Of a stretch of DNA of 64,000 nucleotides, positions 6,367 to 53,950 are shown in pieces. The number at the start of each line of letters is the position of its first letter. Within the stretch, counting starts at the first letter, position 1. Made by a program: the position numbers and the translations under genes. The DNA is from Torpedo marmorata (Eukaryota). The stretch spans positions 147,374,001-147,438,000 of the forward strand of contig OZ360225.1 in assembly GCA_977017645.1 (NCBI GenBank). Direction: 5' to 3'. The notes below the pieces were generated by a model. It had not been told where the DNA came from and did no database searches. It saw only the letters and a program-made list of their open reading frames with translations.

Positions 6367-7860
6367 GGTTCAAAATACTTCCAAGACTCTATGTACAAAG
6401 AAAAAATTTAAACCACTTTATACACTGAGAAATATTTATTCATGTGATGGGTTAAGAGGCCACCTTCTAGTAAACGTGAGGTCATATTCACACAAAGTAG
6501 TCATACCATTTAAAACTAAGACTGTGAAACACAAATGGAAAAAAGCTTTCAGCAATGATCAGAATAGTGACTGATACTGAAAAGTCTATTTAAAGATATA
6601 GTTTCACAAAAAGAATATCCATGCAAAAACTCAGGCAATCTTTCACACAGTGATTCATTGTACTCGCACAATTTCATGTTAAGCCTTACTTTGCATCATA
6701 GCTCAGTGCCTTTCACATCTTCAGGATCAATTCAGACTCTAATCTTATCTCTGTCCCAAATACTCCAAGTAACGGGTTTTGATCGAATGGTTCACAGACA
6801 TCCTCACTCTTCTTCTCTCTGGACTCATTCACATATGGACCTTAAGGTTGCTCCACAAATATCTAAGTACTCTCCTTTGGATTCTGTTGTTTTACTTAGT
6901 TCTGTAAATTAACTGTCTGTGCTTCATCCTATTATTCTTCCTTCCTTTGCTCTGTAAATGAAGAAATTTTGCTCTATAAATGCTGAACTATTTTCTTTTA
7001 TCTTTGCTCTCTTGTATGTCTCTTATAATTCCTTCAGTGTTTTAATGTCATAGGAACAGGCCCTTCGGCACAACTTGCCCACACCAGCCAAAATGTCCCA
7101 CACACACAGTCCCACCAGCCTGTGTTTGGCCCTTTGGCCTCTAAACTGATACTATCAATGTACTGTCCAATTGTTTCTTAAACATTGCAATAGTACTTGC
7201 CTCGACCACCTCCTCCAGTGGTCCATTCCATATACCACCACCCTCTCTGTAAAAAAGAAAGTTAGCCATCAGGTTCCTATTAAATCTCTCCTCTCTCACT
7301 TTAAACCTATATCCCCTCGTTACTAATTGCCCAACTCTGGGCCGAAGACTCTGTGTGTATACCCGATCTATTCCTCTCCGCCCCCCTGCCCCCCCTCCCT
7401 GAGTCCTGGCAACATCCTCATAAGTCTTTTCTGCACCTTTTCCAGCTTGGCAACATTTTCCTGCAGCACGGAGACCAAAACTGTACACAATACTCCAAAT
7501 GGGGCCTCACGAACGTCTTATGCAACTGCACCATGACCTCCCAACTTCCATTCTCAATACTCTGACTGATGAAGGTGAATGTGCTGAAAGCCTTTTTGAC
7601 CACCCTATCTATCTGTGACACTACAGTCAAGGAGCTATGTACCTGTGCTCCTAGATCCCTCTGCTCCACAACACTTCCCAGATCTCTTCCATTCACTGTG
7701 TTGGTCTTACCCAGCCAATCTCAATGATTTGTTTGGCTATGGACCCCTTAGGACTCTCCTCAAAGTTTAAGGGCCCCCTTCCCTGTAAAGCAGTCAAGTT
7801 TTGGTTTCTTCCATACTTCTCTCCTACCAACTACATAAAATGTACCCATGTTAGACCTAC

Positions 7861-10800
7861 TGTGGTAAACCACTGTATATATGTTTGTAGTCGTCTGGAC
7901 ACGCCCCTTGCTGACTGTACCTGTAGCTCCACCAACAGACCCCTGAATAAAGCCCATTGTGCCACAGCTCCCTCCCCAGTCCAGGACAGACGACCAGCAG
8001 GGACGTGCCGTCATTCCGATGTAAATAAAAGCTTATCAGTTTCTACATAACTTCTAGTATTTCGGAGTTATTGATGGTGCATCAAATTTATTTACATCGC
8101 TTTTGATAATGGAACAGTTCCTGAAACCAGAAAAACTGGAACTCAATCCTCAATCACCTGAGGAATCCAACAGCTTCGAAAACTGGCTGCGTTATTTTGA
8201 AGCATTCCTGCGGGCCTCCGCTACAGTCGTTAGATCAGAGGACGAGAAACTGCAGGTACTACATTCCCGGGTCGGGCCCCGGGTATATTCGATGATCAGG
8301 GACGCCGAATCATATCAGGACGCCATGGACATGCTGAGGAGCCAGTACCTGAAGAGGGTAAATGAGGTCTACGCTAGGCACCTCCTGGCTACCCGAAAAC
8401 AGCGACCCGGGGAATCGAGCGCCGAGTACCTTTGGGCCCTGTGAACCCTCGGACGGGCCTGTGGCTGCAAGGCCGTGATGGCCGCGGCAAACACGGAGGA
8501 TCTCATTAGAGACGCCTATGTTGCGGGTATCCGATCCAATTACATACGGCAGAGATTGTTGGAGCAGGGTGAGCTTAACTTGCAGAGGGCAGTCGACCTA
8601 GCAGGCATGCTAGAAGTAGCCCTCCAAAATATGGATGCTTACTCAGCTAACAATGCGGCCGCCTCGTGGTTACCGAGGGCGCTGCCATCTTGGGACGTGG
8701 GAGGGCCGCAAGCCTGTGGAACACCGCAACCGCCACGTCCCATCAGCGACTCGACCACGGCCGCTATACTCCGCGAGCAGCCGAAGTACTACTACTGCGG
8801 CCAAGACAAGCATCCCAGAAAACGCTGCCCGGCGAAAGACGCGGTCTGTTCTAGCTGCGGGAAGAAGGGGCACTACGCGAAAGTCTGTAAGTCCAAGCCG
8901 CCCTCAAGATCCAGCAGCGCCGCGTGCGAGCAAGGGGCGCCGCCATCTTCCCAACTCAGCAGCACCGCGTGCGGACCATGGCGGCCGCCATCTTGGGACC
9001 GAACACCACATCGCTTCTATGGAGCCCGACAGCGATTCAATACTGGCCTCCATCACGCTGGATCAAGGGATCCCCCATCAACTGGCCAGATCGATGATGG
9101 ACATCGAGGTGGATGACCACAAGACGAGCTGCCTGTTCGATAGTGGGAGCACGGAGAGCTTTATACACCCCGCCACGGTGCAGCATTACCGCCTCACGGT
9201 AATGCCGGTAAGCCACAAAGTCTCCATGGCTTCAAAGTCCCATATGGCAGAGATTCACGGCTACTGCCTAGTGACTCTGACTGTGCTGGGCACAGAGTAC
9301 AAACACTTTAAGCTACTTGTTATGTCACAGCTCTGCGCTGCCATGCTACTGGGGCTAGACTTTCAGTGTCACCTTAAAAGCGTGACGTTGGAGTACGATG
9401 GGCCCCACCCCTCACCCCCCTTACTTTCTGTTTGTAAACCGCCCACCGCAATTCACCCACAAAAGCTCCCCGGACTCCTCTCCCACCGCGTCCAGCCAGC
9501 AACCCACAGATTTCCCAACGCGCACGACCTGCGGCCTTTCTACCCTCCGGATCACCCCTACACCACTATTCGCTAACCTTACCCCCGACTGTAAACCCAT
9601 TGTCACCAAAAGTAGGCGATACAGCGCCGGGGACAGGGCCTTTATAAGGTCGGAGGTGCAGCGGCTATTGAAGGAGGGGATCATTGAAGCCAGCACCAGC
9701 CCCTGGAGAGCCCAAGTGGTGGTGGTAAAGAATGGGGAGAAAAACAGGATGGTCATTGACTACAGTCAGACCATCAACAGATATACGCAGCTGGACGCAT
9801 ACCCTCTCCCCCGCATAGCCGACATGGTGAACCAAATCGCCCAATACCGGGTATTCTCCACCATCAATTTAAAGTCGGTATACCACCAGCTCCCTATCCG
9901 CCTGGAGGACCGCCAATACACTGCCTTCGAGGCAGATGGCCGCCTCTATCATTTTCTGAGGGTTCCCTTTGGTGTCACCAACGGAGTCTCGGTCTTCCAG
10001 TGGGAGATGGACCGAATGGTTGACCAGCACAGGCTGCAGGCCACATTCCAGTTCCTGGACAACATTTCCATTTGCGGCCATGACCTACAGGATCATGAAG
10101 CCAATCTCCAAAAATTCCTCCAGACCGCCAAACTCCTCAACCTTACTTATAATAAGGATAAATGCGTCTTTGGCACAACACGTTGGCGATCCTTGGCTGC
10201 ATCGTACAGGACGGAGTCATTGGCCCCGATCCATACCGCATGCGCCCCCTGTTGGAACTTCCCCTCCCCCACAGCCTCAAAGCCCTGAAAAGGTGCCTGC
10301 GCTTTTTCTCGTACTATGCCCAGTGGGTCCCCAATTATGCAGACAAGGCCCGCCCCCTCATCAAATCTACCTCTTTTCCCCTGACGTCAGAGACCCGTGC
10401 GGCCTTCAGCCGCATCAAGGCAGACATCGCCAAGGCCGCGATACACGCTGTGGACGAATCCACCCCATTCCAGGTGGAGAGCGATGCGTCCGACTTCGCC
10501 CTGGCCGCCACCCTCAACCAAGCGGGCAGACCCGTAGCTTTCTTTTCCCGCACCCTCCAGGGCCCAGAAATCCGACACTCCTCTGTCGAGAAGGAGGTCC
10601 AAGCCATTGACAAGGCAGTATGGCACTGGAGACACTACCTCGCCGGCAAACGATTCACCTTGCTGATGGACCAACGTTCAGTTGCTTTCATGTTTAACAA
10701 CCAGCAGCGAGGCAAAATCAAAAATGACAAGATACTGAGGTGGAGAATCGAACTTTCCACCTACAATTACGATATCTTGTACCGGCCGGGAAAATTCAAT

Positions 10801-12243
10801 GAGCCCCCAGATGTCCTATCCCACGGAACATGTGCCAGCGCACAAATAGACCGCTTACAAGTCCTCCACAGCAACCTCTGCCACCCCGGGGTCACCAGGT
10901 TCTTCCACCTCATCAAAGCCCGCAACCTACCTTACTCCATCGAGGAGGTCAGGACCATGACCAGGAACTGCCAGATCTGTGCGGAGTGCAAACCGCACTT
11001 CTATCAACCAGTCAGAGCGCACCTGATAAAAGCTACCCGCCCCTTTGAATGCCTGAGCATCAATTTCAAGGGACCCCTCCCCTCCTCTGACCGCAACGTG
11101 TACTTCCTCAACATTATTGATGAGTACTCACGTTTCCCGTTCGCCATCCCCTGTCCGGACATGACCACAGCCAAAGTCATCAAGGCTCTGCACAATCACT
11201 TCACCCTGTTTGGGTACCCCTGCTATATTCATAGCGACTGGGGGTCCTCTTTTATGAGTGACGAGTTGCGTCAGTACCTGCTGGCCAGAGGCATCGCCAC
11301 AAGCAGGACCACCAGTTACAACCCCTGAGGGAACGGGCAGGTGGAGAGGGAGAATGCTACCGTCTGGAAGGCCACCCTCCTAGCTACTGTCTGGAAGGCC
11401 ACCCTCCTAGCCCTAAGGTCTAGAGGTCTTCCAGTCTCCCACTGGCAAGATGTCCTCCCCGATGCACTCCACTCAATCAGATCGCTCCTATGCACCGCCA
11501 CCAATGCCACTCCACATGAGAGAATGTTTTCCTTCCCTAGGTTGTCCGCTTCAGGGACCACACTTCTGACCTGGCTGACGTCCCCAGGGCCGGTCCTACT
11601 CCAGAGGCATGCGAGGAGCCATAAACATGACCCACTGGTCGAAAGGGTCCATCTCCTCCACGCCAAACCCCAATACGCCTACGTGACATACCCTGATGGG
11701 CGGGAGGTCACGGTCTCCGTTCGGGATCTGGCACCCTCAGGAGTCCCTGACACCATTACCGACCACCCTGCGCCCCCCCCCACCCCACCTACCGCTACCT
11801 ACGATGCACCGAAGCCATGGTAGGTGACCCCAGCCCCTGGGGATGGCATGACAGATTCGTCGCCACACATCCACCAAGACAGAGCCGACAACAACACACA
11901 GGTGGTCCAAACAGGACTGGATGCAACAGCTGCGCCGCAGCCAGCACTACGACGGTCACAGTGGCAGACCAGACCACCTGAAAGACTCCATTTGTGAGAA
12001 CTTTAATTCACTTTACCCCGCAGGGCTCTTTTTAAAAAGGAGGGGTGAATGTGGTAAACCACTGTATATATGTTTGTAGTCGTCTGGACACGACCCTCGC
12101 TGACTGTACCTGTGGCTCCTCCCACAGACCCCTGAATAAAGGCCATTGTGCCACAGCTCCCTCCTCAGTCCAGGACAGACGACCAGCAGGGACGTGCCTT
12201 CATTCATAACTTCTAGTCTTTCGGAGTTATTGATGGTGCATCA
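7861..12243 (+). mobile_element. Compact (4.4 kb) Ty3/Gypsy LTR retrotransposon, complete but inactivated
   Basis: LTRs 7861-8084 and 12050-12243 (TG...CA); 5-bp TSD CCTAC; PPT AAAAGGAGGGGTGAA; gag with CCHC knuckles, PR (LFDSGS), RT, RNase H (ESDASD), integrase; internal stops and frameshifts. Confidence 0.95.
8109..11823 (+). pseudogene. gag-pol of the Gypsy element (gag-PR-RT-RH-IN), disrupted
   Basis: ORFs 8103-8444, 8475-9116, 8635-9576, 9398-10288, 10162-11328 and 11341-11823 tile the domains; TGA stops at 8442 and 11326 fit CGA>TGA decay. Confidence 0.9.
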
Positions 12244-13240: not shown

Positions 13241-14460
13241 ATTTCCATTCTCCCTCAGAATGCTCTCCAGTAACTTACCAAGCGCAGATTTTCTGCTCAC
13301 TGGCCTGTTTTTCCCAGGCTTTTCCCTGCAGCCCTTTTTGAATAGAGGCACAACATTTGACACTCTCCAGTTCTCTGGCACCTCACCTGCACGTAATTAT
13401 GACTCAAAAAACACCTGCAATTTCTTCAATTGTCTCCTCCAAGCCTGCAATCTGTTGTTTGTCAACAAACATCTGCTAAAAAAAAATCACAACTGCCACA
13501 CCTGATCTGCAGCCTCAAGGAGCATTCAAACCATTTAATGTTTATTTATGTGAGATTTTCTGTCTTAATAAAATCCTGTGGCAATCTGTCTTCTATTTTA
13601 ATCTTCCTCGCACAGTATTAGCTTCTATAATTGGGAATTAAGTAATTCAGGAATATTTCCAGTCATCATTATTTTCCTTGAAATGCAAAAGTCTCCAACC
13701 TGAAGGAACTATAGTTTGTCTGGCCACTTTTAGAGTTTTCCAATCTCTTTTAGAGTTTGGCTTTGCAACCTACAACACAACTGGCTGGTGTCTTTAAGTA
13801 AGTAGTTTTATTTTGATTGCATTTTATACTTTCTATAAATATTAGCAATACTTTGTCACTCTTACAAACCAACAAAACTACAATCAACTCACAGACCTTC
13901 AAACTGGCTAAAGGTTGCTGTGTGTATGTTCCAGAATTAAGCTGAGCTCACTTTATGGAGTTAAATCTCTACTTTTATTCTTCTTTGAAATGCAACATTG
14001 TCTTTGTATTCTTGATCTTCATTGTCCAGCACTGTAGATTTATGTTCATCTCTCTGGTTAACGACTGAGACTCCATTCTCCAGGGCCCTTAATTATAAGA
14101 TGCACCATCTGTACCATGTGCCTTATTTTTATCTTGTCACACAGGTTGTAAATTTCTGTGGACTATTTGATAAGGTCACAATGCTCCTGTTTATCAGTTT
14201 GTACTGCACTTCACAAGTTAGCAGTGGATTTTTGTGCAACATAAACCCACACAATTCAAAGTTCTTGCTCTTTAAGTTTACCTACTTGTGCTTTTCTGTG
14301 AAATTGGATAATTCTACATTAAGCCCAACATGTTCTCAAATGTTATCAAGTGGCATGTACCAATATCTTATTCATGGATGTTCAGCTTGGGTTCTGCCAG
14401 AAACTGCAGCTCCAGGCTTCAATAGATACTTGACCCAAATTAATAAAAGAGCTGAATTCT

Positions 14461-14808
14461 AAAAGTGTTGTCCAGTTGACTCCTGTTGACTCTAAAAGTA
14501 TCATCTGGTTGACTCCTGTTGACTCTAAAAGTATCGTTTGATTGACTCTAAAAGTGTGGTCTGGTTGACTTCTGTTGACTCTAAAAGTATTGTTTGATTG
14601 ACTCTAAAAGTGTGGTCTGGTTGACTTCTGTTGACTCTAAAAGTATTGTTTGATTGACTCTAAAAGTGTGGTCTGGTTGACTTCTATTGGCTCTAAAAGT
14701 ATCGTCTGTTTGACTCCTGTTGACTCTAAAAGAGTTGTCTGGTTGACTCTAAAAATGTCATCTAGTTGACTGCTGTGGACTCTAAAAGATTTGTTTGGTT
14801 GACTCTTG
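14461..14808. repeat. Minisatellite with about 33-bp and 23-bp units (CTAAAAGT...CTGGTTGACTCCTGTTGACT)
   Basis: TTGACTCTAAAAG recurs about ten times. Confidence 0.9.
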
Positions 14809-25708: not shown

Positions 25709-28524
25709 TCAGCAATTACATTTCCCTTTTATATGTGTTATTACCAAATCATATTTTTGCAAAATTAGACTCCAATTCAACAACCGTCGATTCTTATTTT
25801 TCATTTTAAAAAGAAAAACCAATGGATTATGGTCAGTATACACTATGAATGGTTTTTGAGCTGTACAGATATAAACATCAAAGTGTTGTAGAGCCAACAC
25901 AAGAGCCAACAACTCTTTTTCTATTGCTGAATAATTCCTTTGATGATCATTGAACTTCTTTGAGAAGTAGGATACAGGATGGTCAATGTCCTCTTCGTTC
26001 TTCTTCTGTAACAGCACCGCGCCCACAGCTTCATCGCTGGCATCCACGGCTAAAGAAAACGGCTGTTCTAAATTAGGTGACTTAAGCACAGGTTGGTGGC
26101 ATAACATGGCTTTCAATTTGACAAATGCTTCCTGACAACCTGTCGACCATACAAATGTTTCTCTCTTTCTAAGCAAATTTGTGAGAGGGAGCACAAGATC
26201 AGCAAAGTTTTTACAGAACTTGCGGTAGTAGCCAATCATTCCCAGGAACCTCCTCAGAGTTTACTTACCAGTTGGAACAGGGAACTCGGAAATAGTCACA
26301 ACCTTTTCCTCTACTGGCGCCAACTGCCCCTGTCCTACTACATAACCCAGAGAATTAACAGTCCCATGACCCTCTCTGAAACTGGTTTTATCTGTCTTCT
26401 CCTTACCCCTGTCAATAAGCAGCACCTCTGGTAAATATTCAGTCTCTTTGTGCGGCACCTGTTCAAGATATGGCTTAATCATATTCACATGACAGACCTG
26501 TGTGTCTCGTCTGCGATTAGGTGTTTCTATGACATAGGTGACATCATTAATTTTTGACTTAACTCTATAGGGTCCTGAAAATCTAGCCCTAAGAGGATTT
26601 GAATGGATGGGAAACAGAACTAATACGCTCTCACCAGGTTTAAAAGTTCTCATCTTAGCCTTTCGATCATACCAAACCTTCATTCTCTGTTGAGTGGCCT
26701 TTAAATTCTCCTTTGCCATCTCACAAGCCCTATGCAACTGATCCTTAAATTTGGAAACATAATCTAACAGATTTAAATGCACATCACTGTTAATCCACTG
26801 TTCTTTTAATAATCTTAAAGGACCTCTCACCTCATGTCCGAAAACTAACTCGAATGGACTAAAACCAAGTGATTCTTGGACAGACTCCCTCGCTGCAAAT
26901 AACAACAAATGAACCCCCTCATCCCAATCCTTTTCACAACAATAGGTTCTAATCATGTTTTTCAAAGTCAAATGGAACCTCTCCAAGGCCCCTTTACTTT
27001 CTGGATGGTACGCAGAGGATACAATCTGTTTAACTCCCAGTCCATCAACCACTTGTTGGAAAATGCCTGACATGAAATTACTGCCCTGATCTGATTGAAT
27101 TTCCCTTGGCAAACCTACCAAGGTGAAAAACTTTACCATAGCCTTTACAATTGACTTTGCTTTAATGTTTCTCAGAGGAATGGCCTCTGGAAATCTGGTG
27201 GCTGCACACATAATTGTTAACAAATACTCATTCCCCGCTTTGGTTTTGGGCAATGGGCCAACACATCCACAAACACTCTCGAGAAAGGCTCACTGAAAGC
27301 AGGGATAGGTTGCAAGGGTGCCACCGGGGGACTCTGATTAGGTTTACCCACCACCTGACAAGTGTGACAGGCCCGGAAAAAGCTTACAACCTCCCTTCTC
27401 AAACAGGGCCAATAAAATTGTTTCATTATCTTCCTTATAGTTTTCTTCACCCCAAGGTGACCACCAAAGGGTGTGCTATGAGCCAAAGTTATTATTGCAT
27501 CCCTATATACTTTAGGGATCACAACCTGCTGCACTACTGCCCATTCTTCATTGGCAGGAACATCACGTGGTCTCCACTTTCTCATCAACACCCCATCTTT
27601 TTCATAATAACCCACTGGCACCTTTTTAATCTCCTCTTCAGAGAGAACCTTATCCCTTACCTCAGCAAGATCAGGATCGTCCTTTTGCCTTGCTATTAGC
27701 TCCTGTCGGGATAGTGACAAATCTGTGCCTTTTGGTGTCTTATCAGTGGATGGGTGTAACACAGGAGATTGCTCAACCTTTTCCAGGTTTTCTTGATTAT
27801 CACTGACTTTTTCTTTCACCAATGTATTTTCCACTGCCTTCCCTACAGTGACATTTTTCTTAGACATGGCCCTGGTTATGGCACATGCCGGATAAATATC
27901 AGAGTCTTTCTCTGACTTATCAATGACTGGCTTAGTGGTCATTCGCACTGCAGGCACTACTTTACCCTTGGCCAAGTCATTGCCTAGCAACAGTGAGACT
28001 CCTTCCACTGGCAAGTCTGATCTCACTTCTATTATAACAGGTCCTTCCACCAAGGCTGAGTCCAACACAATTTTGTGCAAAGGAATGGACTCAACATCAC
28101 CCCCAATTCCTTTAATTAAATTCATGTCACCGGTGTTAGTAGCTTCATAAAATTCCAAGACACTATCTAACACAAGTGACTGAGCAGCTCCAGTATCTCG
28201 CAAGATTTTCACTGGAACTTCATTTGATCTTGCCTTAACTGAAACAAAACCATCAGTCACAAAAGGTTTAAATATATCCCTAACTTTGTCAGTAAATTTA
28301 TCTCCTTCCTGGGTGTAATGCCTCTTCTCACTCTGAATACAAGCATTAGGTGTTGCATCCTTTTCTCTCTTCTTTTTCAACACTGGACAGCTTGCTAGCA
28401 TATGACCAGCCTTCCTACAGTAGTGGCAAATGGGACCCGAAGGGTTATCCCTTTTCCACTTTCCTTCATCCCTTTCCTTAACACCACTTCCAAATTTACT
28501 TTCCACTTGCTTGGGATTATCCAC
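25709..28524 (-). pseudogene. Gmr1-type pol: zinc knuckle, protease, integrase, RT C-terminal stub, RNase H
   Basis: ORFs 27217-28524, 26261-27253 (SDQGSNF, SAYHPESKGALER) and 25709-26239 (AVDASD, YTDHNPL). Confidence 0.9.
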
Positions 28525-28784
28525 ATTGACCTTTTGGAAAATTCTGCCTGACGTCCACTTAGGCTTGTGGGTTAAAGCTTATTCATCTGCTAACTTAGCT
28601 GAATTTTGCCAAGCTTTCACCTCCTTTTCATCTAAGTATGCCTTAATATCCTCAGGAACACACCTTTTTATCTCCTCAGTCATTATCAATTCTCTCAATT
28701 GATTGTAATCATTGTTTACCGCCTTAGATGTGCACAACCGGTCAAAACACACAACCTTTTCATAGGCAACCTCTGTGTAAGATT

Positions 28785-29897
28785 AAAGTAAAAAACACAA
28801 ATGCTGGAGAAACTCAGCAGGTCAAATAGTGTCTTTTATGTAGCAAAGGTAGAAATACATAACCGACGTTTCGGGCTTGAGCCCTTCATCAAAGTATGAG
28901 AAAATGCTGGTAGGCGTCCGAACAAAAGAGTGAGGGGGGAAGGGGGATGGCAAAGGCAGGAGATGATAGGTGGAGAAAGGAGGGAGGGGACAGCAGCAAA
29001 GAGGGGGAGGAGGGATGGCTAGGTAGCTGGAGAAAAACAGGAAGGACAGGTGAGGGGGGAGGGGAAGGGAACGACAAGCAGGTTTAGTGGACAGCAGAAA
29101 AGTCAATGTTAATGCCTTCTGGCTGGAGAGTGCCGAGACGGAATATGAGATGTTGTTCCTGCAATTTGCGGGTAGTCTGGGTGGGATAGTACATGAGGCC
29201 ATGGACAGACATGTGAGTGTGGGAGTGTGACCCGGAATTGAAATGGTTGGCTACTGGGAGGTCGCTGTTGTTGCGGACGGAGAGGAGGTGCTCAGCAAAG
29301 CGGTCTCCCAATCTACGACCGGTCTCTCCAATGTAGAGAAAGCCACAAAGGGAGCACCGGATGCAGTAAATACGTTCTCTGGATGTACAAGTGAAGTGTA
29401 GTTTCACTTGGAAGGCCTGTTTGGGGCCCTGGACCATGGTGAGGGGGGAGGTGTGGGTGCAGGTGTTGCACCTCCTGCGGGCACAGGGGAAGGTGCCAGG
29501 GTGTGAAGGGTTGGGAGGGATGCGTGCACGAGTGAATCGCGGAGGGAGCGGTCCCTACGGAAGGCCGAGAGGGGAGGAGAAGGAAAAATGTGTCTGGTGG
29601 TAGGATCCTGTAGTAAGTGCCGGAAATTCCGGCGGATAATGTGTTGGATGCGGAGGCTGGTGGGGTGGTAGGTGAGGATGAGGGGGATTCTATGTTTGTT
29701 GCGTCTGGGGGCAGAGGGGGCCAGGGCAGATGAGCGGGAAATGGAGGAGATGCGGGTGAGGGCTGAGTTGATGGTGTTGGAGGGGAAGCCACGTTTGTGG
29801 AAAAGGCAGACATTTCAGAAGATCTGGAGTGGAACACCTCATCTTGGGAACAGATGCGGCGGAGGCGGAGAAATTGAGAGAAGGGGATGGAGTCCAA
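28785..29897 (-). mobile_element. Penelope-like element (RT C-terminus, GIY-YIG endonuclease, pLTR) inserted in the Gmr1 gag
   Basis: SIPFSQFLRLRRICS and IYCIRCSLCGFLYIGETGRRLGDRFAEH; 13-bp TSD TCTGTGTAAGATT. Confidence 0.93.
28858..28899 (-). ncRNA. Minimal type I hammerhead ribozyme (C3U variant) in the Penelope pLTR
   Basis: CAUACU-UUGAUGA-A-GGGC(UCAA)GCCC-GAAACGUC-GGUUAUG: core boxes, stem II, palindromic ACGU stem III, bulged stem I. Confidence 0.7.
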
Positions 29898-30285
29898 TCT
29901 GTGTAAGATTGGTTTGCTGATCTTTTTAAATTTCTAAACTTCTGTCTATAAGCCTCTGGAACTAACTCATAAGCCTGGAGTATAGCCTTTTTCACCGTTT
30001 CATAATCAGCAGCTTGCTCCGTGGTAAGAGTAGAATAAGCTTGCTGAGCTTTTCCTTTTATTACACTTTGTAACATAAGAGACCATTGGTCTTGTGGCCA
30101 TTTTAATTTCACAGCCACCTTCTCAAAATGCTGGAAGTACTTATCTATTTCTGCCTCCTCAAATGGAGGAACCAACCTAACTTCTCTACTTGCCAAAAAC
30201 CCCTCAACAGGATGACAAATTTGATCTTTTTGCTCTTCTCGTCTCCTCTTATTTTCCAACCTCATCTTTTCCAGCTCATATTTCC

Positions 30286-32268
30286 ATAGACCTAAATGAA
30301 TATGCAACAGGTGTCACCGACTTCATCAAGACCTGCGTGGATGAGTGTGGGCCCATGCGCAAATACCGCGTGTTCCCCAACCAGAAGCCCTGCATGAATC
30401 AGAGAATTCGCAACCTGCTGAGGACGAGAACAAGGGCGTTTAAGGCCGGGGACCGGGATCTTTACAAGAAGTCCAGGCACGACCAGCGGAAGGCCATCTC
30501 TGAAGCAAAGTGGCAATTCCAGAGGAAGCTGGAGACAGAGACAGATACACGCCAGCTATGGCAGGGAGTGCAGGCCATAACAGCCTACAAAGCTCGGGCG
30601 AACACTATAGACGGCTGTGATGCTTCACAACCCGATGAGCTGAACACCTTCTATGCCCGCTTTGAGAAGAAGAACAAAACAGTGCCTACTAGAATCCCTG
30701 AAAAGGCTGAGGACCCTGTGATATCTGCCTCTGAGGGCGACGTCAGGACATCATTCAAGAGGGTGAACCCTCGCAAGGCGTCAGGCCCTGACGGCGTACC
30801 TGGCAGGGTACTGAAAATCTGCACCAACCAACTAGCCGGAGTGTTCACGGACATTTTCAACCTCTCATTGCGGCAGTCAGAGGTTCCCACCTGCTTCAAA
30901 AGGACATCAATCATCCCAGTACCCAAGAACAGTAGTGTGGGCTGCCTCAACGACTACCACCCAGTAGCACTAACTTCTACTGTGATGAAATGCTTTGAGA
31001 GGCTGGTCATGGCCAGAATTAACACATACCTGAGCAAAGATCTGGACCCACTGCAATTCGCCTATCGTCACAATCGCTCCACAGCAGATGCAATATCGCT
31101 GGCTCTCCACTCAGCTCTGGATCACCTCAAAAACAGCAATTCATACATACGGCTGCTCTTCATCGACAACAGCTTGGCCTTCAATAACATTATTCCCTCA
31201 GTGCTGGTCAAGAAGCTACAAACTCTAGGCCTCTGTACCCACCTCTGCAACTGGATCCTTGACTTTCTCATCGGAAGACCACAGTCAGTACGAATTGGAA
31301 ACAACGTCTCCTCCTCACTGATTATCAACACAGGCGCACCCCAAGGATGCGTTCTTAGTCCATTGCTCTACTCGTTATACACCCATGAATGTGTGGCCTG
31401 GCACAATTCCAATGCCATCTACAAGTTTGCCGATGACACCACAGTTGTCGGCAGAATCACAAACGGCAATGAGGAAGCATACAGGAGGGAGATAGATCAG
31501 CTCGTTGAATGGTGTTATGGCAACAACCTTGAGCTCAACGTCAGCAAAACCAAGGAGATGATTGTGGACTTCAGGAGGAAGTCAGGGGAAGACAACCAAG
31601 TCCTCATCGAGGGCTCAGTAGTGGAGAGGGTCAACAACTTCAAATTCCTGGGTGTCAACATCTCCGAGGATCTGTCCTGGAGCATCCACATTGATGCAAT
31701 CACAAAGAAGGCTCGTCAGCGGCTATACTTTGTGAGGTGTCTGCGGAGATTCGGTATGTCACCAAAGACTCTTGTAAACTTATACAGGTGTACCGTGGAG
31801 AGCATTCTGGCTGGTTGCATCACTGCCTGGTATGGAGGCGCCAACTCCCAGGACAAGAGTAAACTCCAGAGGGTTGTTAACTCAGCCTGTGACATCACAG
31901 GCACCAAACTTCACTCCATCGAGGACATCTACATGAGGCGGTGTCTTAAAAAAGCAGCCTCTATCCTCAAAGATCCCCACCACCCAGGCCATGCCCTCTT
32001 CACTCTGCTTCCATCGGGAAAAAGGTACAGGAGCCTAAAGACAAGCACTCAACGGCACAAGGACAGCTTCTTCCCCGCTGCCATCAGATTCCTGAATAAT
32101 CAATGAACCAAAGACACTGCCTTACTTTTCGTGCACTATTGTTTATAATTTTTTATAGTAATGTCGTAAGATGGTTAATATGAATGTTAATTGCACTATG
32201 ATGCTGCCGCAAAACACCGAATTTCATGACTTGTTCATGACAATAAATTCTGATTCTGATTCTGATTC
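30286..32268 (+). mobile_element. Rex1/Babar LINE, 5'-truncated, with an open RT ORF (to 32106)
   Basis: GPDG, ALTSTVMKCFERL, GAPQGCVLSPLLY, KFADD; 3' AATAAA plus (TTCTGA)n tail; interrupts the Gmr1 gag. Confidence 0.93.
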
Positions 32269-32289
32269 TATTTTTCTCCTCGTTCTCTA

Positions 32290-32470
32290 AGTCTAATCTC
32301 CTTTGTTCCAATTCCGTGTCTATTTTCTTTTGTTCCCTGGCTACCTCCAAGTCTAATCTCTTTTGTTCCCTGGCTACCTCCATTCTAATCTCTTTTGTTC
32401 CATGGCTACCTCCAATTCTAATTTCTTTTGTTCCCTGGCTGCCTCCAATTCCAATTTCTTTAGTTCCAAC
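32290..32470 (-). repeat. 33-bp coding tandem repeat (LEVAREQKRLD-like coiled coil) in the Gmr1 gag
   Basis: TTTTGTTCCCTGGCTACCTCC repeats about five times. Confidence 0.8.
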
Positions 32471-32813
32471 TGTATGTTTTCAGAAGTTTTACCCTTGGGA
32501 AACTGCTCTAACACTCTCTCCTCAAACTTTTTTTCTTTTATATAGTATTTGACAATTTTTCTCCCAATCTCTGCCTTTTTCATAGATGGTTTTACTGAAG
32601 CAATGCCCAATTTTGTTGCTATAGACACTAACTGTTCCTTTTACACCTTTTTTAAAGTATCAGGTTCAGGTGATTCCAAAAATTTTCCTACATCCATTGT
32701 TGCTGGTTTTTCGTTACACACACACTCGCTTTTTAATTATCTTTACAAAAGGAATGTCTTAAACCAGACTGGGATTCCTTCAATTACCAAGATGGATTTT
32801 GATTCAAATCCAA

Positions 32814-44702: not shown

Positions 44703-47700
44703 TGATGAGCCCATCAATAACTTCAAAAGACTAGAAGTTACCAAGAACTGAAAGGCTTTTATTGGCAAAAGAATGAAGCTACATTCGTGCTGGTGATCTG
44801 TCCCGGACTGGGGGAGGAGCAGTGGCACAATGGCCTTTATTCAGGGGGCCTGAGGGAGGAGCCACCAGGACAGTCAGCAGAGGGCATGTCCAGATATATC
44901 ACCCAGCCCACAACCTATACATAGTGGTTTACCACATTCACCCCTCCTTTTAAAAGAGTCCAGTGGGGTGAAGGGTATAACAATATTTACAAAGAATTAA
45001 AATTACAAATCGAGTCGATCAGGCGGTCGAGTCCGCCGCTGTGATCGGCGCAGTACTTGTGGTGATGGGGCAGGAAGCAGTGCTGCCTCCTGCCTGATTT
45101 GGGGTACCAGCAAGTCTGGCGTTCGCGAAACCTCGGGTCAACATGCCGGTACATTTGGTGTCATATTTGAATTGGGTGGTGCCTCTTGTGTGTCCTTAAT
45201 GGTAGGTATGGGGGTAACAGTAACTACGGAGTGTTCGAGGGCGGCGGCGGGTCCCAGTGCTCCTGCGGGCGCCAGGTCCCGGATGGAGACCGTGTCTTCC
45301 CGCCCATCAGGAAAACCACGTAGGCGTACTGGGGGTTCGCGTGTAATAATTGAACACTCTCATGTTTCCGGAGCAGCACTGGCCCTGAGGACGTCAGCCA
45401 TGCTGGTAGGGTAGTCCCGGTGGTCGACTTCCTGGGGAAGGAAAAGAGTCTCTCATGAGGGGTGGCATTGGTGGATGTGCAGAGCAGGGAGCGGATGGAG
45501 TGGAGTGCTTCGGGAAGGACTTCTTACCAGCGGAAGACTGATAATCCCTTAGACCTGAGGGCTAAGAGTGTGGCCTTCCAGAACGTGGCGTTCTCCCGCT
45601 CCACTTGTCAATTGCCCCTTGGGTTATAGCTCATGGTCCTGCTAGTCACGATACCCATGGCCAGCAGATATTGGCGCAGCTCGTCACTCATAAACGAGGA
45701 CCCTCAGTCACTATGGATATAGCAGGGGTATCCAAACAATGTGAAGAGTTTGCGGAGGGCTTTTATGATTGAGGTGGTAGTGGTATCGGGGCAGGGAATG
45801 GCGAAAGGAAACCGTGAGTACTCGTCAATGACGTTGAGGAAATACAAATTGCGGTCGGAGGAGGGAAGGGGCCCTTAAAGTTGACGCTTAGTCCCTCAAA
45901 TGGGCGGGTTGCTTTTATCAACTGTGCCTTGTCAGGATGGTAGAAGTGCGGTTTGCACTCTGCGCAGACTTGGCAGCTGCCAGTCATCGTCCTGACCTCT
46001 TCCAGGGAGTACGGCAGGTTACGGGCTTTCACAAAGTGAAAACCCCTGGTGACTCCGGGGTGGCAGAGGTCACAGTGGAGGGCATATAACCGGTCGATCT
46101 GTGCGATAGTGCACATCCCCCGGGATAGAGCATCGGAGGGCTCATTGAGCTTCCCGGGCCGGTACATTATATCATAGTTGTAGGTGGAGAGTTCGATTCT
46201 CCACCTCAGGATTTTTTATCATTTTTGATTTTACCCCGCTGCTGGTTGCTGAACATGAATGCGACTGAGCGTTGGTCAGTCAGCAGGGTAAACCTTTTGC
46301 CGGCGAGATAGTGCCTCCAGTGCCTGATAGCTTCCACTATGGCTTGGGCCTCTTTCTCCACGGCTGAGTGCCGAATTTCTGGGCCTTGAAGGGTACAGGA
46401 GAAGAACGCCACCGGTCTTCCCGCCTGGTTGAGGGTATAAGCCAGTGCGAAGTCGGACGCGTCGCTCTCTACTTGAAAGGGAGTGGACTCGTCCACCGCG
46501 TGCATTACTGCTCTGGCAATGTCCCCTTTTATGAGGTTGAAAGCCTCACGTGCCTCCGCTGCAAGGGGAAAAGTGGTGGACATGACTAGGGGGCGGGCCT
46601 TGTCCGCATAATTAGGGACCCATTGAGCATAGTAAGAAAAGAAGCCCAAGCACCTTTTGAGGGCTCTGAGGGTGTGGGGAAGTGATGACCCCGTTCTCCA
46701 CAACACACCCCAGGATAGCGAGTCGGGTGGTTCCGAACACGCACTTATCCTTGTTATAGGTGAGGTTAAGTGCTTTGGCCGCCTGGAGGAACTTCCGAAG
46801 ATTGTTATCGTGGTCCTGCCGGTCGTGGCTGCAGATAGTGATGTTATCTAGGTATGCAAAAGTGGCCTTTAATTTGTATTGGTCCACCATCCTGTCCATC
46901 TCCCTCTGGAAGACGGATACCCCATTTGTTACCCCAAAGGGGACGCGCATGAAATGATAGATTCTGCCGTCCGCCTCGAAGGCGGTGTAGGGGCGGTCCT
47001 CCCGGCAAATGGGGAGCTGGTGGTAGGCAGATTTGAGGTCTATGGTGGAGAATAGCTTATATTGGGCTATCTGGTCCACCATATCTGCGATGCGTGGTAG
47101 AGGGTATGCGTCAAGCTGTGTGAAACTATTGACGGTCTGACTATAATCTACCACCATCCTGTTTTACTCCCCGTTCTTGACAACAACCACCTGGGCCCTC
47201 CAGGGACTCGTGCTCGCCTCGATGATCCCTTCCCCAAGTAATCTCTGCACCTCTGACTTAATGAATGCCCTGTCCCCTGTGCTGTATCTCCTGCTTTTGG
47301 TTGCCATGGGTTTACAATCAGGGGTCAGATTGGCGAACAGTGTTGGGGCAGGAACTTTTTTTTAAAATATTTTATTTAAAATTTTAAATCACTCAATAAT
47401 ACATATATAAAATACAAAATTATCAAAATACATGATATATATTTTCACCCCACCTCCCTCCCTCCCCTCCCTAACCCTCCCACCCCTACTATTCTAATAA
47501 AGTAAAAGAAAAAGATGAAAAAAGAAAAAGATAGAGTAAGGAGAATGTCAATCTAAAAAAGAACTATAAGCTAATTTTATTGTGGAAGATAGGATCGCCA
47601 GTCAGATCTGATATCCAGAGATCTTCAAATCCTTAAACCAACAGTTTTTATATATGGGCTCCATATTTTCAAAAATAAATGATATTTGTTACGTAAATTA

Positions 47701-49862
47701 TAAGTAATTTTTTCAAGTGGTATAGCTGAACGAAGTTCTGCATGCCATCTTTCTAACCCTAAATCTACATCAGATTTCCATGTAACAGCAATGCATTTCT
47801 TAGAAACAGCTAAAGCAATTCGCAAAAATTCTATTTGATACATATTTAATTTCATCTTAATACTAATTCTTTTAATATCTCCAAACAAAACTATCATAGG
47901 ATCCATTGGGAGTGTAATTCTTAATACTTTGTCTAAAAACTTTTTAACTTTCAACCAAAAATCATATATCTTTGGACAAAGCCATGTAGAATGTACAAAA
48001 GAACCTTCCTCTCTATTACATCTAAAACATAAACCAGATAATGTCAGGTTAAATTTCTTTAATTTTTTAGGTGTTAAATATAATTGATGAAAAAAATTAT
48101 ATTGCACTAGTCTATATCTAACATTAATAATCTTCGCCATACTTTGTTTACATAATTCTTTCCAATGTTCTTCATCTATTGTTACATTCAGATTGGGGGC
48201 GGGATCTTGAGTGTGGATAGACTGCAAGTAGTGTGGTGTGACAAAATATTTCTGCAGTTTTTAAGAATTTGGTGATTACCGACAGTAATTGGTGGGAGGG
48301 GCCCGTCATACTCCATAGTCACACTTTGGAGGTGACTCTGGAAGTCGAGCCCCAGTAGTACAGGTGCACACAGTCGGGGCATAACCAAGATCGTGAAGTC
48401 CCAGTATTCAGTGTCCTGCACCACTAGCGTCGCTACACAACCCCCCCCCGGATGTCTGTTGTGTGCGATCCGGAAGCCATGGCAACCCTCTGGCTTACCA
48501 GCTGTGTCTTGAGGCCGCATCGCTGTACCGTGTCAGGGTGGATGAAGCTCTCTGTGCTGCCTGTGTCGAACAGGCAGTTTGTTCTGTGTCCCTCGACCAG
48601 GATGTCCATCATTGACCTCGCGAGTTGGTGGGGTGCACTCTGATCAAGTGTAACTGACGCCAACGTTGAGTCGCTGTCTTGATCCGACGCGATGGAGTGC
48701 CTGCTGTCCCGGGATGGCAGCACCCTGTGTCGGCGCAATGGTGTGGAACAAAATAGCCACTCCCATGACTCGCACGTGTTGGCCGCGGATAAGTAAGATG
48801 ACGGCGACGGTAGTGACGACACACAAGATGGCCGCCCCCAAGCCTCACACGCGGCGCTGCTCGATCCCACTCGCGGTTTAGATCTACAGACCTTAGCAAA
48901 ATGGCCTTTCTTCCCGCAGCTGGAGCAAGTCACTTCTCAGGCCGGGCAACGTTTCCGGGGGTGCTTTTCAAGTCCGCAGAAGTAGCATTTCTCGGACTCG
49001 CGGCTGCTGTGGTCAATTCACCGGCATGGTGTGGGGTCTGCGGTATCCACGGAGCCTGCGGGAGATCGCGCGCCTGTATAGCATCAGAGTTCTGTAGCGC
49101 GGCCTCCAGTGTATCGGCCAGCTCGATCGCGGAACGGAAGGTGAGGTCAGCTTGTTCCAGCAGCCGCTGGTGCACATACACTGACATGGTCTCCATAACA
49201 AAAGCATCTCTTACTAGGAGCTCTGTGTGTTGTTCGGCCATCAGTCCCTGGCAGTCGCAGACCCGCATGAGTGTTAGTAGGGCCCGTACGAACTACGCGC
49301 TCGACTCCCTGGGCCGCTGCTGCCGCGTCGCTACCCTGCTTCTCGCATATACAGTATTAACAGGCCGTATATACTGCATTTTAAGGGCATTCATAACGTC
49401 TTCATAAGTCTGCAGATCTCAGATCATGGAGTAGACTCGTGGGCTTACCCTAGAGAGGAGGACTTTGGGTTTTGCGGCGTCTTCTTGTACTTTGATCTCC
49501 TCCAGGAACGACTCAAAACAGGCTAGCCAGAGTTCAAAAGCATTGCCAGCCTCTGGTGTTTGTGGATCGAGGTCCAGTTTGTCTGGTCTCAAGACATTCT
49601 CCATGCTTACAATTTTGCCAATAAAATTGATGAGCCCATCAATAACTTCAAAAGACTAGAAGTTACACAAGAACTGAAAGGCTTTTGTTGGCAAAAGAAT
49701 GGAGCTACATTTGTGCTGGTGATCTGTCCCGGACTGGGGGAGGAGCGGTGGCACAATAGCCTTTATTCAGGGGGTCTGTGGGAGGAGCCACCGGGACAGT
49801 CAGCAGAGGGCATGTCCAGACCTATCACCCAGCCCACAACCCATACATAGTGGTTTACCACA
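44703..49862 (-). mobile_element. Compact Ty3/Gypsy LTR retrotransposon, sister subfamily of 7861-12243, with an L1-like insertion
   Basis: LTRs 44703-44936 and 49628-49862; 5-bp TSD AGTAT; PPT 44937-44951; gag MENVLRPDKLDLDPQ, LFDTGS, YLDN, ESDASD, integrase. Confidence 0.95.
47355..48191 (-). mobile_element. 5'-truncated L1/Tx1-like LINE inside the Gypsy pol
   Basis: ORF2 C-terminus with CFRC...HSTWLC knuckle; A-rich tail; same family as 57803-59565. Confidence 0.88.
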
Positions 49863-49941: not shown

Positions 49942-50127
49942 CCCCAGCATAGTGGTTAGCGCAACGCTGTTACAGCCCCAGCGAATGGGACCAGGGTTCG
50001 AATCATGTGCAGTCTATAAGGAGTTTGTATCTTCTACTCATGTCTGTGTGGGTTTCTTTTGGGGGCTCCGGTTTCCACCCACCATTCAAAACATTACGGG
50101 GATTGTAGATTAACGGCGTGTAATTGC
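49942..50127 (+). mobile_element. V-SINE, truncated by the adjacent LTR
   Basis: GTGGTTAGCGCAACGCTGTTACAGC, GGGTTCGAATC, GGGGCTCCGGTTTCC. Confidence 0.8.
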
Positions 50128-53100
50128 TGTGGTAACTTCTACTTTGAAAAAGGACCACTCGACAACTTCAAGCTCAAAAGAACAACTTTATCTGCAACAG
50201 CAAAACCATACAAATGCAGAGTCTTATTTTCTTCCTCTGTTTCTTTCCCTCTGGCAACACACAGCATGGCCTCCAAGCTATATACAAGGCACACAGGAAG
50301 TAAAGACGACAGACAGGAAGTAAAACCCCTCCCAGCCTCACTTTAAAAACAGCTCACATTACAACACTTCTCCCCCATAAAATCCAACATGCCCCAAATA
50401 TAAAGAACAATGGTGTCATTAGCTTGTGTACTCCTAAAATGTATAATAACATCTCAGCAACAATAATATAAAAACATCCAAAAAATGTGGCAGATTCCAC
50501 ATTACAGTCTAAAAAACCTGTCCAATCAAAGATTTAGTCTGTCAGGAGGTTCGCGAGTGCGCTGTGATCTGCGCACTACCCCCGATGACCCAGCAGGCAC
50601 CGCTGACAAAGGTATTTTGGGCGAATCTGATGTTGGGGGCATAAGAGGGGTCTGTGTGGGAATGTCCATCCTCTTCAGGGGACCCAGACCCCTCTGCCAG
50701 CATCTCTCTCTCTCTGGCAAACTCACCGGGGAACAAACTTCCACAGTAGTCTGTCTCACCATTGGGAACTCCATGGAACTGTCCGCCTCCGAGTACGTAT
50801 CATGACGCAAGCGCACATGGTCCTGATGTCTGCGGAAAACACGTCCGTCAGTCAGCTTAACAACATAGGAGACAGGCCCACTCTGCTTAAGAATAACCCT
50901 GGTAAGCCATTGTTGATTGTTTCTCACATAGACATTGTCATCTGGTTTTAACTGTCTTTCTCACGCATGTTGATCATGTCCCTCCTTCTGCTTTTCCTGC
51001 TTTCGCTCCACTCTTGCCTTCATGTCCGGGCGCAGCAGGTCCAATCTTGACTTGGGCCTATGCCCCATCAGCATCTCCACTGGAGTGCGTTTAGTTGTAG
51101 TCTGCGGCGTAAGGCAATATTTAAACAAGAAACGTGAAAGCCAGATGCGAAGAGAGTCCTCTGTCATCCTCTTCAGGCCTTCCTTCACTATCTGAACAGC
51201 CCGCTCAGCCAAACCATTTGAGACTGGGTGGAAAGGGGCTGTCCGAATGTGATGAATGCCATTCTGCTGCATGAACTCACTGAACAGCTCACTGGTAAAT
51301 GTCGGGCCATTATCAGTGACCAGAGTGTCAGGCAACCCCTGGACTGCAAACACTTGCCTGAGTTTGTCTATGGTTGAGTGGGCTGTAATGTTGCCCATGA
51401 TGTGAGCTTTTATCCATTTGGAATGCGCAACCACCATTACTAGAAACATCTGCCCCATAAAAGGGCCAGCAAAGTCCAAATGTAGCCTAGACCAGGGGCG
51501 GTCTGGCCACTCCCATGGGTGCAAAGGAGCTGCTGGTGGCATTTTCTGATTGATCTGACATTGCATGCATGATTTTACCTTGTTCTCCAGATCCTGATCC
51601 ATTCTTGTCCACCAGACGTAGGATCCTGCAAGGCTTTTCATTTGAGACACCCCTGGATGAGTCTCATGAACTTCCTCCACAATCTTTGAATGGCCAGGGG
51701 GAGGCACGATGACCCTCTCCCCCCAGAAAATGCAGCCATCCTGCAGACTCAATTCTGTCTTACATTTGGCAGAAGGCTTCAGTTCCTCTCCTTCCACGAT
51801 ACTGGGCTATCCTTGTAAAAGGAAAGTCTTGACTTGAGACCGGACTGGGTCCCTCTATCCACTGCTTTATCTGAGTTGCCTTTACAGATGTCTCTGACAG
51901 CCTCTCCAATGAAAACACCGTTTCTGGAGGCACATATGTAGTCTCCAGTGTCTCAGGTAAAGGTAGATGACTCAGCGGATCAGCATTTGCTTTATCCCCA
52001 CCTGCTCTGTACACAATAGTGCATTGGTAGGCTCACAATGTGAGAGCCCAACGCTGTATCCTAGCTGAGGCTAGCAGTGGGACACATCTGGTCTCACTGA
52101 ACAGGCTCATCAGTGGTTTATGATCAGTATAACTTTTGAATGCACATCCATAAAGGTACTGATGAAAACGTTTGACCGCAAAAACAATGGCCAAACCTTC
52201 TTTGTCTAGCTGTGAATATCCCTTCTCAGCAGCCGTCAGGGTACGTGAAGCAAAACCAATAGGCTTCTCTGAACGGTCCTCTATTACATTAGAGAACTGA
52301 CCCTACTCCATAGGGTGAGTCGTCACATGAAAGGGAAATCTCTTTATCTGGGTCAAAGTGAACCAGCAGCTTCACTGAGTGGAGGAGTTCTTTCACGTCC
52401 TTGAAAGCTTCCTCCTGCTCTTCACTCAACTGCCACTTGGAGCTATTGTGCAACATCTTGTGCAGTGGGGCCAAAACCCCTGAGGTCAGGAAGAAACTTG
52501 CCATAATAATTCACCATGCCCAAAAATGATCTAAGTTCTGTGACACCCTTTGAGCTTGGGGCCTCCTTGATAACTCTCACTTTGTCCTCCACCGGGCAGA
52601 GCCCCTCAGCTGTGATCTTGTCCCAGGTAGGTCGCACTCGGTGCCAGGAACACACATTTACCACGTTTCAATCGCAGCCCTGCATCTGAGAGCCTCTTCA
52701 ACACCTATTCCAAGTTAGCCAGATGCTCCACCTCCGTGGCCCCCGTGATCAAAATATCATCCAGATACACCGCTACGTGCGGAATCCCCTGCAGCAAGAT
52801 GTCCATTGTCCTTTGGAAAATGGCAGGGCTGGACGCCACTCCAAACACCAGGCGATTATATTTAAATACCTTAAGCGTGTTAATTGTGACATTCTCCTTT
52901 GAATCCTCATCGAGCAGCAGCTGTTGGTAAGCGTGGCTCATGTCCAGCTTTGTGAATAGCTTACCCCCTGACAGGGTCGCAAACAGGTCATCCACCCGTG
53001 GCAATGGGTATTCCTCCAGCTTAGAGACCTGATTCACCATAAGCTTATAGTCCCCACATATCCTCACCATTTTGTCTGCCTTCAAAACTGGAACAATGGG

Positions 53101-53950
53101 AGCTGCCCACCTTGAAAACTGGACGGACTCAATGATTCCCAACCACTGTAAATGTTTCAGCTCCTCCTCGACCTTGTCTTTCATGTTGTAGGGCACTGCC
53201 CTGGGCTTAAAAAACGTGGTGTGGCCTCAGGATCAACATTGAGTTTCACTGTCACGCCCTTCAATGTGCCCAGCTTATCCCTGAAAACATCACTCTACCT
53301 CTGCAGAATGTTCTCCGCCGTGTGTGCATACTTAATTTCATGCCAGTTGAGCCGGATTTTGCGAAGTCACTCGCAGCCCAAAAGACTGGGCACGCTGCAC
53401 TTAGCTATCACCAGCCTGGCTTCCGCCTTCTGACCCCCGTATAAAATATCCACATATAACACCCCTAAATGAGGTATGGGCTGCCCCGTATTGGTCCTGA
53501 GTTTGAACTTTGACAGTCTGATGGGAGGCAGGTTGGACCCCCATGTCCTCCTGTAGATCTCCTCACTGATGACTGATATTGTAGCCCCTGAATCAATCTC
53601 AAACTTAATTTCCTTTCCTCTGACAGTGACTGTGGCAGAATATGGTTCAGGTGGTTCCTCATCTGTTTCCACTCCAAATATATTGTAAGCACCCGTTGTC
53701 TCTTCATCTGCTTCTTCTGGGTTGTGTGTGGCTACCAGAGCCCATTGAGCTTTCCTCTGCCGAGGCTTAACCTTACCCTTTGAACTCCTGCACTTCTTAG
53801 TTAAATTTCCCTTTTTGCTACAACCATAGCAGAGTGTTTTTGAATTTGCACTCATTTGCATAGTGCATCCCTCCACACCAAGAACATTCTACCCACTTTG
53901 CTTGTATACCAGTCTCCCTCCTGACTTGGTACACTGCCACTGACTGCAAA
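50128..53950 (-). mobile_element. Mag-like Gypsy element, 5'-truncated; 3' LTR 50128-50366
   Basis: Two knuckles, FEIDSGA protease, RT (WAAPIVPV, YLDD), RNase H, integrase (LHLDFAGPF, TDNGPTF); PPT GGGGGAGAAG next to the LTR. Confidence 0.9.

Follow-up and report, generated by a model that had tools for sequence, protein, structure and literature searches.

Published accounts tie the priming of reverse transcription from an element's own RNA to the Tf1/sushi group and to Tcn1, predict it for the plant TAR copia elements, and describe a pretzel of three duplexes (PMC6317226, PMC3601003, PMC6934838, PMC5445492, PMC6238403, PMC4600332, PMC8220671; cf. also PMC8556966, PMC10085805, PMC11042837, PMC5341516, PMC7175516, PMC5443660). 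[quoted passage not shown] The preliminary description of the DNA studied here had likewise associated the mechanism with Tf1/sushi, which association is indeed that of the literature, but the prediction for the plant TAR elements provides a precedent outside that group (PMC6317226).

With Tf1 and Tf2, Tj1, and Tf1/sushi, the family that we describe shares the Ty3/gypsy domain order, the lack of a tRNA-type PBS, complementarity between a segment of the LTR and the PBS, and a stem directly beside the primer duplex, as those features are set out for the former elements (PMC7175516, PMC10085805, PMC4600332). Tf1/sushi is nevertheless a chromodomain group, whereas 38 aligned relatives were without a Chromo or SH3_Tf2-1 match and the clade occupies a long RT branch of its own. 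Moreover, the Tf1 primer consists of the RNA's first 11 bases, while the corresponding LTR segment of the focal family (hereafter, the arm) has 14 bases, ends in a poly(A)-type signal, and probably lies 37–61 nt inside the RNA; and of the three duplexes of the Tf1 pretzel, the central one and one flanking stem are present here, but the third, 3' of the PBS, was looked for and was not evident. The plant TAR copia elements (Houba, Osr-1) and the gypsy element Tcn1 resemble the focal family in that self-priming has been predicted from complementarity between PBS and LTR (PMC6317226); TAR, however, is copia and Tcn1 sits with Tf1/sushi, whereas the present family belongs to a metazoan gypsy clade devoid of a chromodomain. 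The fungal copia element GalEa, with its Conserved Hairpin Site, also has no tRNA PBS and carries a structure at the primer position, but its partner strand is in the internal region, its authors reporting that they found no complement in the LTR, whereas the partner in our family is in the LTR (PMC5445492). A search of full-text papers yielded no account of self-priming in a chromodomain-less animal gypsy clade.

Two related elements and the complement beyond the LTR

The window—by which we mean the whole stretch of 64,000 nt from Torpedo marmorata that was analysed—contains two complete but decayed Ty3/gypsy elements of the same family: element 1 at 7861-12243 on the forward strand, with the target duplication CCTAC, and element 2 at 49862-44703 on the reverse strand, with the target duplication ATACT. 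Both are flanked by a 5-bp target duplication and have a polypurine tract in addition to TG...CA LTRs of 224–235 nt, and their Pfam domains follow the Ty3/gypsy order PR-RT-RNase H-IN. The two LTRs differ at 9 of 194 and at 11 of 234 aligned bases in the respective elements, whose internal blocks are 73–82% alike. In element 1 (forward strand), a 5' LTR of 224 nt at 7861..8084 (TG...CA) is followed by gag-PR-RT-RNase H-IN at 8109..11823, interrupted by stops and frameshifts and with no chromodomain match, then by the polypurine-tract region at 12031..12049 and the 3' LTR at 12050..12243, which LTR has lost the arm and its AATAAA through a deletion of 30 nt. That deletion lies between two CATT repeats. 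In element 2 (reverse strand), the 5' LTR occupies 49628..49862, the gag ATG is at 49604, and the 3' LTR occupies 44703..44936.

All the strings and coordinates quoted in the preliminary description proved to be exact upon re-checking. The PBS position of element 1 (8087..8099, forward strand), situated 2 nt past the end of the LTR, is the exact reverse complement of 8017-8029 within the LTR; the arm as we delimit it (8017..8030, forward strand) comprises seven variable letters plus AATAAAA and is the predicted self-primer, with its 3' end at 8030 as the cut site predicted from the sequence. In element 2, the PBS position (49613..49626, reverse strand, read 49626-49613) begins 1 nt past the LTR end and matches the arm of the 3' LTR (44770-44757) at 14 of 14 bases and that of the 5' LTR (49696-49683) at 13 of 14. 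A 13-nt complement arose in none of 5000 base shuffles of the element 1 LTR, the maximum being 12. With its spacer of 2 nt and its 13 bp, element 1 represents a one-letter variant; its sister copies have mostly a 1-nt spacer and 14 bp.

Covariation and probable joint drift of the arm and the PBS

We scanned the T. marmorata genome (6.2 billion bases) with a junction pattern composed of constant letters only (AATAAAAG ... TCAATTTTATT ... ATGG), which pattern gave 27,657 matches and, when reversed, none. For the analysis of covariation the first 90 listed of those 27,657 places were taken, 87 of them distinct, the variable letters being ignored in the choice. Helix positions 1 to 7 were Watson-Crick paired in 79, 85, 85, 84, 81, 80, and 73 of the 87 copies, against maxima of 54, 40, 79, 58, 53, 47, and 60 when the partners were shuffled; position 8 was at chance (11 of 87; shuffle mean 10), whereas position 11 again exceeded the shuffles (53 of 87; maximum 45), so that the end of the helix is not perfectly clean. 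Pairing was perfect over all seven positions in 53 copies, which together contained 23 different heptamers, and over six positions in 65 (shuffle mean 4.3), although these cell counts are not independent events because the copies share kinship. When 50 of the 87 copies were picked for diversity, 97.4% of the cells paired, versus 37–54% in slid controls, and both sides had changed in seven of the seven variable pairs. Within one subfamily group, a by-eye count at the position beside AATAAAA in the first 100 listed of 3,732 places gave 50 C-G pairs, 42 T-A pairs, and 8 mismatches, and both types of pair were found on the same U5 background.

The pairing extends to distant relatives. Among the homologues listed, the closest named proteins were from rays and catsharks (76–81%), followed by those of a sea anemone, Hydra, a tunicate, and Trichuris/Trichinella (56–62%). 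From 80 metagenome loci we obtained 37 gag starts, which number, less two with short upstream DNA and one weak second site, left 34; a junction at the LTR end could be called in 28, and in 26 of these the PBS paired over at least 11 bases with one mismatch allowed, the paired junctions comprising 18 different PBS 12-mers. By comparison, a PBS set against the LTR of another family reached 11 bases in none of 456 trials. The spacer after the LTR end was 1 nt in nearly all the called junctions, and the arm mostly ended in TAAA(A) followed by RCCT. The viral contigs searched contained no relative and the plasmids searched only one distant match; Rfam gave no match to positions 7800-8300, and the Atlas search returned only generic retrotransposon clusters. 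The preservation of pairing between differing sequences, originally noticed in two subfamilies, thus reaches far past those two, both in the 87-copy sample and among the distant relatives; on this comparative evidence the duplex is real, far beyond chance, and clade-wide.

As the preliminary description had stated, neither element has a PBS starting with TGG. When 45 different PBS 14-mers and the corresponding predicted primers were compared with 52 of the genome's tRNA genes (47 of them distinct, from 50 of 61 matches), the longest agreements were of 5–7 bases, and none of those 52 genes contains AATAAA; over the 12 anticodons and eight amino acids that this set represents, no match exceeded seven bases. 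That a host tRNA, a tRNA half, or another small RNA serves as the primer, the match to the LTR being incidental, would find a parallel in the half-tRNA priming described for copia lineages (PMC6317226) and some room in the span of the comparison, which is of eight amino acids only; but such a host primer would keep the PBS constant rather than tying it to the LTR arm, and we consider the explanation very improbable in view of that objection, of the start of the PBS, and of the shortness of the matches to tRNAs that are themselves devoid of AATAAA. A stronger argument against a tRNA than this screen of eight amino acids is that the PBS tracks the LTR arm through dozens of states. Because the 14 letters at the site of tRNA docking covary with the element's own LTR, the family likely primes from its own RNA. 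We accordingly keep the original proposal of a Tf1-like self-priming by the arm/PBS duplex without a tRNA as a probable one, priming being the likeliest function of a covarying duplex at that position.

The manner in which the helix changes bears on the same question. Among 609 helix cells, 567 were Watson-Crick, 8 G-U, 8 A-C, and 26 other, G-U thus being no commoner than A-C, whereas the neighbouring stem, just 3' of the arm, had 31 G-U in 290 cells and not a single double change. When the block being scored was left out of tree building, the arm underwent 9.6 changes per column, as compared to 5.9–10.0 in masked upstream blocks and 3.3 and 2.9 in the two strands of the neighbouring stem. This masked-block control, in which the rates were the same, led us to discard the notion of faster evolution in the arm than in its flanks. 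Steps in the arm coincided with steps in the PBS in 49 of 67 instances, versus a fraction of 0.21 in the non-partner control. A helix maintained by selection alone should, we would argue, be slower and richer in G-U; a helix that changes at the rate of its unpaired neighbours and has few G-U pairs fits with a copying of the primer into the PBS. In Tf1, about half of the cDNA is described as ending, on the 3' side, in the primer copied into DNA (PMC11042837), which copying would, by analogy, be the step that rewrites the PBS from the primer.

We examined 20 mismatched copies, in 14 of which the 3' LTR was within reach; of the 21 discordant cells, the 3' arm matched the PBS in 13, both LTRs agreed against the PBS in 7, and the 3' arm alone differed in 1. 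Since the 3' LTR still matched the PBS in 13 of those 21 cells, many of the mismatches arose after insertion, and the pattern as a whole appears to be that expected from decay after insertion.

These data also bear on whether the duplex might only hide the 5' poly(A) signal, or else function in packaging or in translation from the gag start, with some other primer in use. The partner strand exists only past the 5' LTR, the AATAAA is covered by the helix in this family, and the gag ATG lies 10–20 nt past the PBS, all of which would suit such roles. A merely structural helix, however, would be expected to tolerate G-U and to change slowly, in the manner of the neighbouring stem; the arm/PBS helix begins 1 nt past the LTR end in nearly all the called junctions; no other primer site is visible; and 9 of 18 distant relatives still pair although the arm has neither hexamer, AATAAA or ATTAAA, at its end. 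We thus regard that explanation as quite improbable, and the masking of the poly(A) signal, which the preliminary description had contemplated, is unlikely to be the main role of the duplex, though it may occur as a side effect in this family.

Predicted transcription start and proposed position of the primer

A second conserved AATAAA, absent from the preliminary description, stands 76–100 nt upstream of the first (at 7946 in element 1). The AATAAAG box to which it belongs (7946..7953 in element 1, forward strand; 49767 in element 2) was present in 83 of 87 copies, and in 80 copies an initiator-like CAGTC followed at 31–34 nt, the distance being 32 nt in 73 of the 80, which initiator-like calls were based on the initiator consensus. 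A spacing of 32 nt is that of a TATA box to an initiator, and the box is likely TATA-like, given its fixed distance from the initiator-like word. From this spacing a start is predicted at A7978 in element 1, within CCCAGTCC (7975..7982, forward strand), a point that follows the box by 32 nt and precedes the arm by 39 nt, and at the A of 49735 in element 2 (reverse strand). The distance from CAGTC to the arm, in contrast to that from the box, varies (37, 38, 39, 49, 60, or 61 nt). This geometry suggests that transcription starts some 39 nt upstream of the arm of element 1, in which circumstance the arm would lie inside R and the primer would be internal. Among the distant relatives, TATA-like words occurred in 4 of 18, at differing distances and with no common spacing.

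A second initiator-like word, the less constant TCATTC, closely precedes the arm, 4 nt upstream of it (8011-8016 in element 1); that transcription would start there, next to the arm as in Tf1, is rather unlikely in our estimation, whereas the internal arm, on a leader of about 50 nt, has a nearly even chance of being the primer. With the upstream start, the probability of the arm/PBS helix in the predicted fold was 0.96 for element 1 and 0.76 for element 2; with the near start, the mean was 0.91 and the value exceeded 0.8 in 77 of 87 copies. The helix is therefore predicted to form from either candidate start.

The two U5 hairpins of the preliminary description were sustained in part. The hairpin TTGATG/CATCAA adjoining the PBS (8071..8085 in element 1, forward strand) is conserved, with 99% of its cells paired and one pair changed on both sides, but has a competitor: its 5' strand is shared with the stem GCCTAT/ATAGGC, which is stacked on the arm/PBS helix and in which that strand pairs with the letters immediately 3' of the arm. 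The inner TAACTTC hairpin (predicted at 8048..8070 in element 1, forward strand) appears in the fold predicted for each of the two elements; the letters at this place differ in further subfamilies. Across the junction, the LTR end (8071-8085 in element 1) forms in many subfamilies a perfect palindrome of 16 bases, which palindrome could serve for RNA dimer formation or for alternation with the stem beside the arm.

In the mechanism that we propose, the transcript would start upstream of the arm, probably at 7978, and the arm would fold onto the PBS with the stem stacked directly 3' of it. The cut would then be made between ...TAAA(A) and RCCT by a nuclease—the element's own RNase H, if Tf1 is a guide—and would leave a 3'-OH facing the LTR end. 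The minus-strand strong-stop DNA would span U5 and the short piece of R situated 3' of the cut and would jump to the 3' R, and plus-strand synthesis would copy the primer back into a new PBS. Once the primer is so copied, the arm and the PBS would change together without a selected double mutation. We found no tested precedent for this putative layout; Tf1 primes with the tip of its RNA at the 5' end, while here the primer would be 37–61 nt inside.

The arm of the other end of the RNA must be weighed against that of the 5' end. If the 3' end of the RNA, trimmed or cut back to ...AAUAAAA, annealed to the PBS and primed there, the RNA would be circularised, and the first strand transfer would make use of the 37–61 nt of R that lie upstream of the arm. 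The termination of the arm in a poly(A)-type signal and the R segment upstream of the arm that the promoter spacing implies are in keeping with that arrangement, which moreover accounts equally for the copying of the primer into the PBS; pairing between 5' and 3' ends is known, furthermore, in Ty1. For this arrangement, however, the poly(A) tail and what remains of R would have to be removed, and the 5' arm, only about 55 nt away, is already predicted to occupy the PBS, with the probabilities given above for the two elements. The two possibilities make opposite predictions about recombination, in that the arm should travel with U3 if the 5' arm is the primer and with U5 if the 3' end is. A nearest-neighbour test gave one instance for U3, four for U5, and six ties, thereby leaning toward the 3' end; but four-gamete rates, at five sites each, lean the opposite way in one group (0.08 versus 0.38, toward U3) and hardly at all in the other (0.19 versus 0.25). 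Overall, priming by the 3' end is, in our judgement, improbable, though less so than the masking or host-RNA explanations.

Searches for chimeric LTRs gave 0, 1, 0, and 3 matches, the three being point variants of one subfamily. The single match (L293; G000:C1:64286717-64289790) passes from an element-2-type 3' LTR into U5, PBS, and gag of the element-1 type; the two types switch immediately 3' of the arm in this tandem junction, which probably arose after insertion.

Placement of the clade

The absence of a chromodomain noted in the preliminary description was borne out: none of 38 aligned relatives had a Chromo or SH3_Tf2-1 match, nor was either domain found in the IN tail of element 1 or among the Pfam labels of the 120 homologues listed. 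In an RT tree of 44 rows, which included no Tf1 or sushi rows and no CsRN1, Cigr-1, Tor, or MolGy references, the family and its relatives formed one branch (100/100, stem 1.89) separate from the plant chromovirus-like, errantivirus-like, Mag-like, and Gmr1-like rows. These lineage labels, including that of the six plant elements, which we take to be chromovirus-like by their motifs, are our own assumption, except for L307, which has an envelope match. The focal RT was not nested among the few Mag-like, Gmr1-like, and errantivirus-like representatives, and with 15 rows sisterhood to any of the four lineages was compatible with the data (p-AU 0.24–0.40), chromoviruses being included at 0.24. 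The assignment to a non-chromovirus lineage thus stands as regards the domains and the long separate RT branch, while a sister relationship to chromoviruses is compatible with that same tree. The best solved relative was the Ty3 RT (E 2e-29), against which the focal RT scored 101 bits, a plant control 181, and an errantivirus-like one 182. This genome provided no chromovirus reference of its own, since the chromodomain matches inspected look like host genes and its SH3_Tf2-1 matches are integrase-before-RT elements.

Most likely, then, judging from the sequence features, the family works like Tf1, its membership in Tf1/sushi being a separate matter. The family is not a typical chromovirus. Tentatively, and with odds that we would place somewhat below even for the whole taken jointly, it may belong to a large metazoan Gypsy clade whose self-priming arose independently of Tf1/sushi and has a different geometry, with an internal poly(A)-ending arm or the RNA 3' end as primer, the PBS rewritten in each cycle, and the arm and PBS free to drift jointly.

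Self-priming is apparently the rule in this chromodomain-less clade, of which a single vertebrate genome contains at least 27,657 junctions and to which proteins named from rays, catsharks, a sea anemone, Hydra, a tunicate, and nematodes are related. An internal primer, if true, would represent a second way of building a primer from an element's own RNA and would bear on which came first, tRNA priming or self-priming. The freedom with which arm and PBS drift together provides a sequence signature by which self-priming families may be found at scale, whereas annotators based on tRNAs will report such elements as being without a PBS.

The RT of the clade has a further peculiarity, in that its catalytic motif is mostly YLDN in place of YxDD. 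Both elements have LDN for xDD (9386-10285; 46615-47163), as do 89 of the 120 homologues listed, a further 19 having D and 12 no motif match. It is unusual for Asn to occupy this catalytic position throughout a clade. Our literature search found no paper that joined YLDN with reverse transcriptase, and the searched supplements of PMC6238403, PMC8556966, and PMC6317226 contained no motifs by which the clade might be named.

Other repeats share the window. Two Gypsy elements with the integrase before the RT, presumably Gmr1-like and of a family abundant in the genome, occupy 25709-30313 and 59564-63071, and a decayed Gypsy element of another lineage, which we take to be Mag-like and which served as an outgroup, lies at 50961-53888. 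A LINE-like fragment inside element 2 (47625-48260) is 81% similar to 58061-58360. Two sequences 79% alike (2050-2205 and 49946-50101) are copies of a short repeat that has a tRNA-like GGATTCGAA box and is probably a SINE, and tandem repeats occur at 14458-14806, with a spacing of 23/33 nt, and at 32286-32480, with one of 33 nt.
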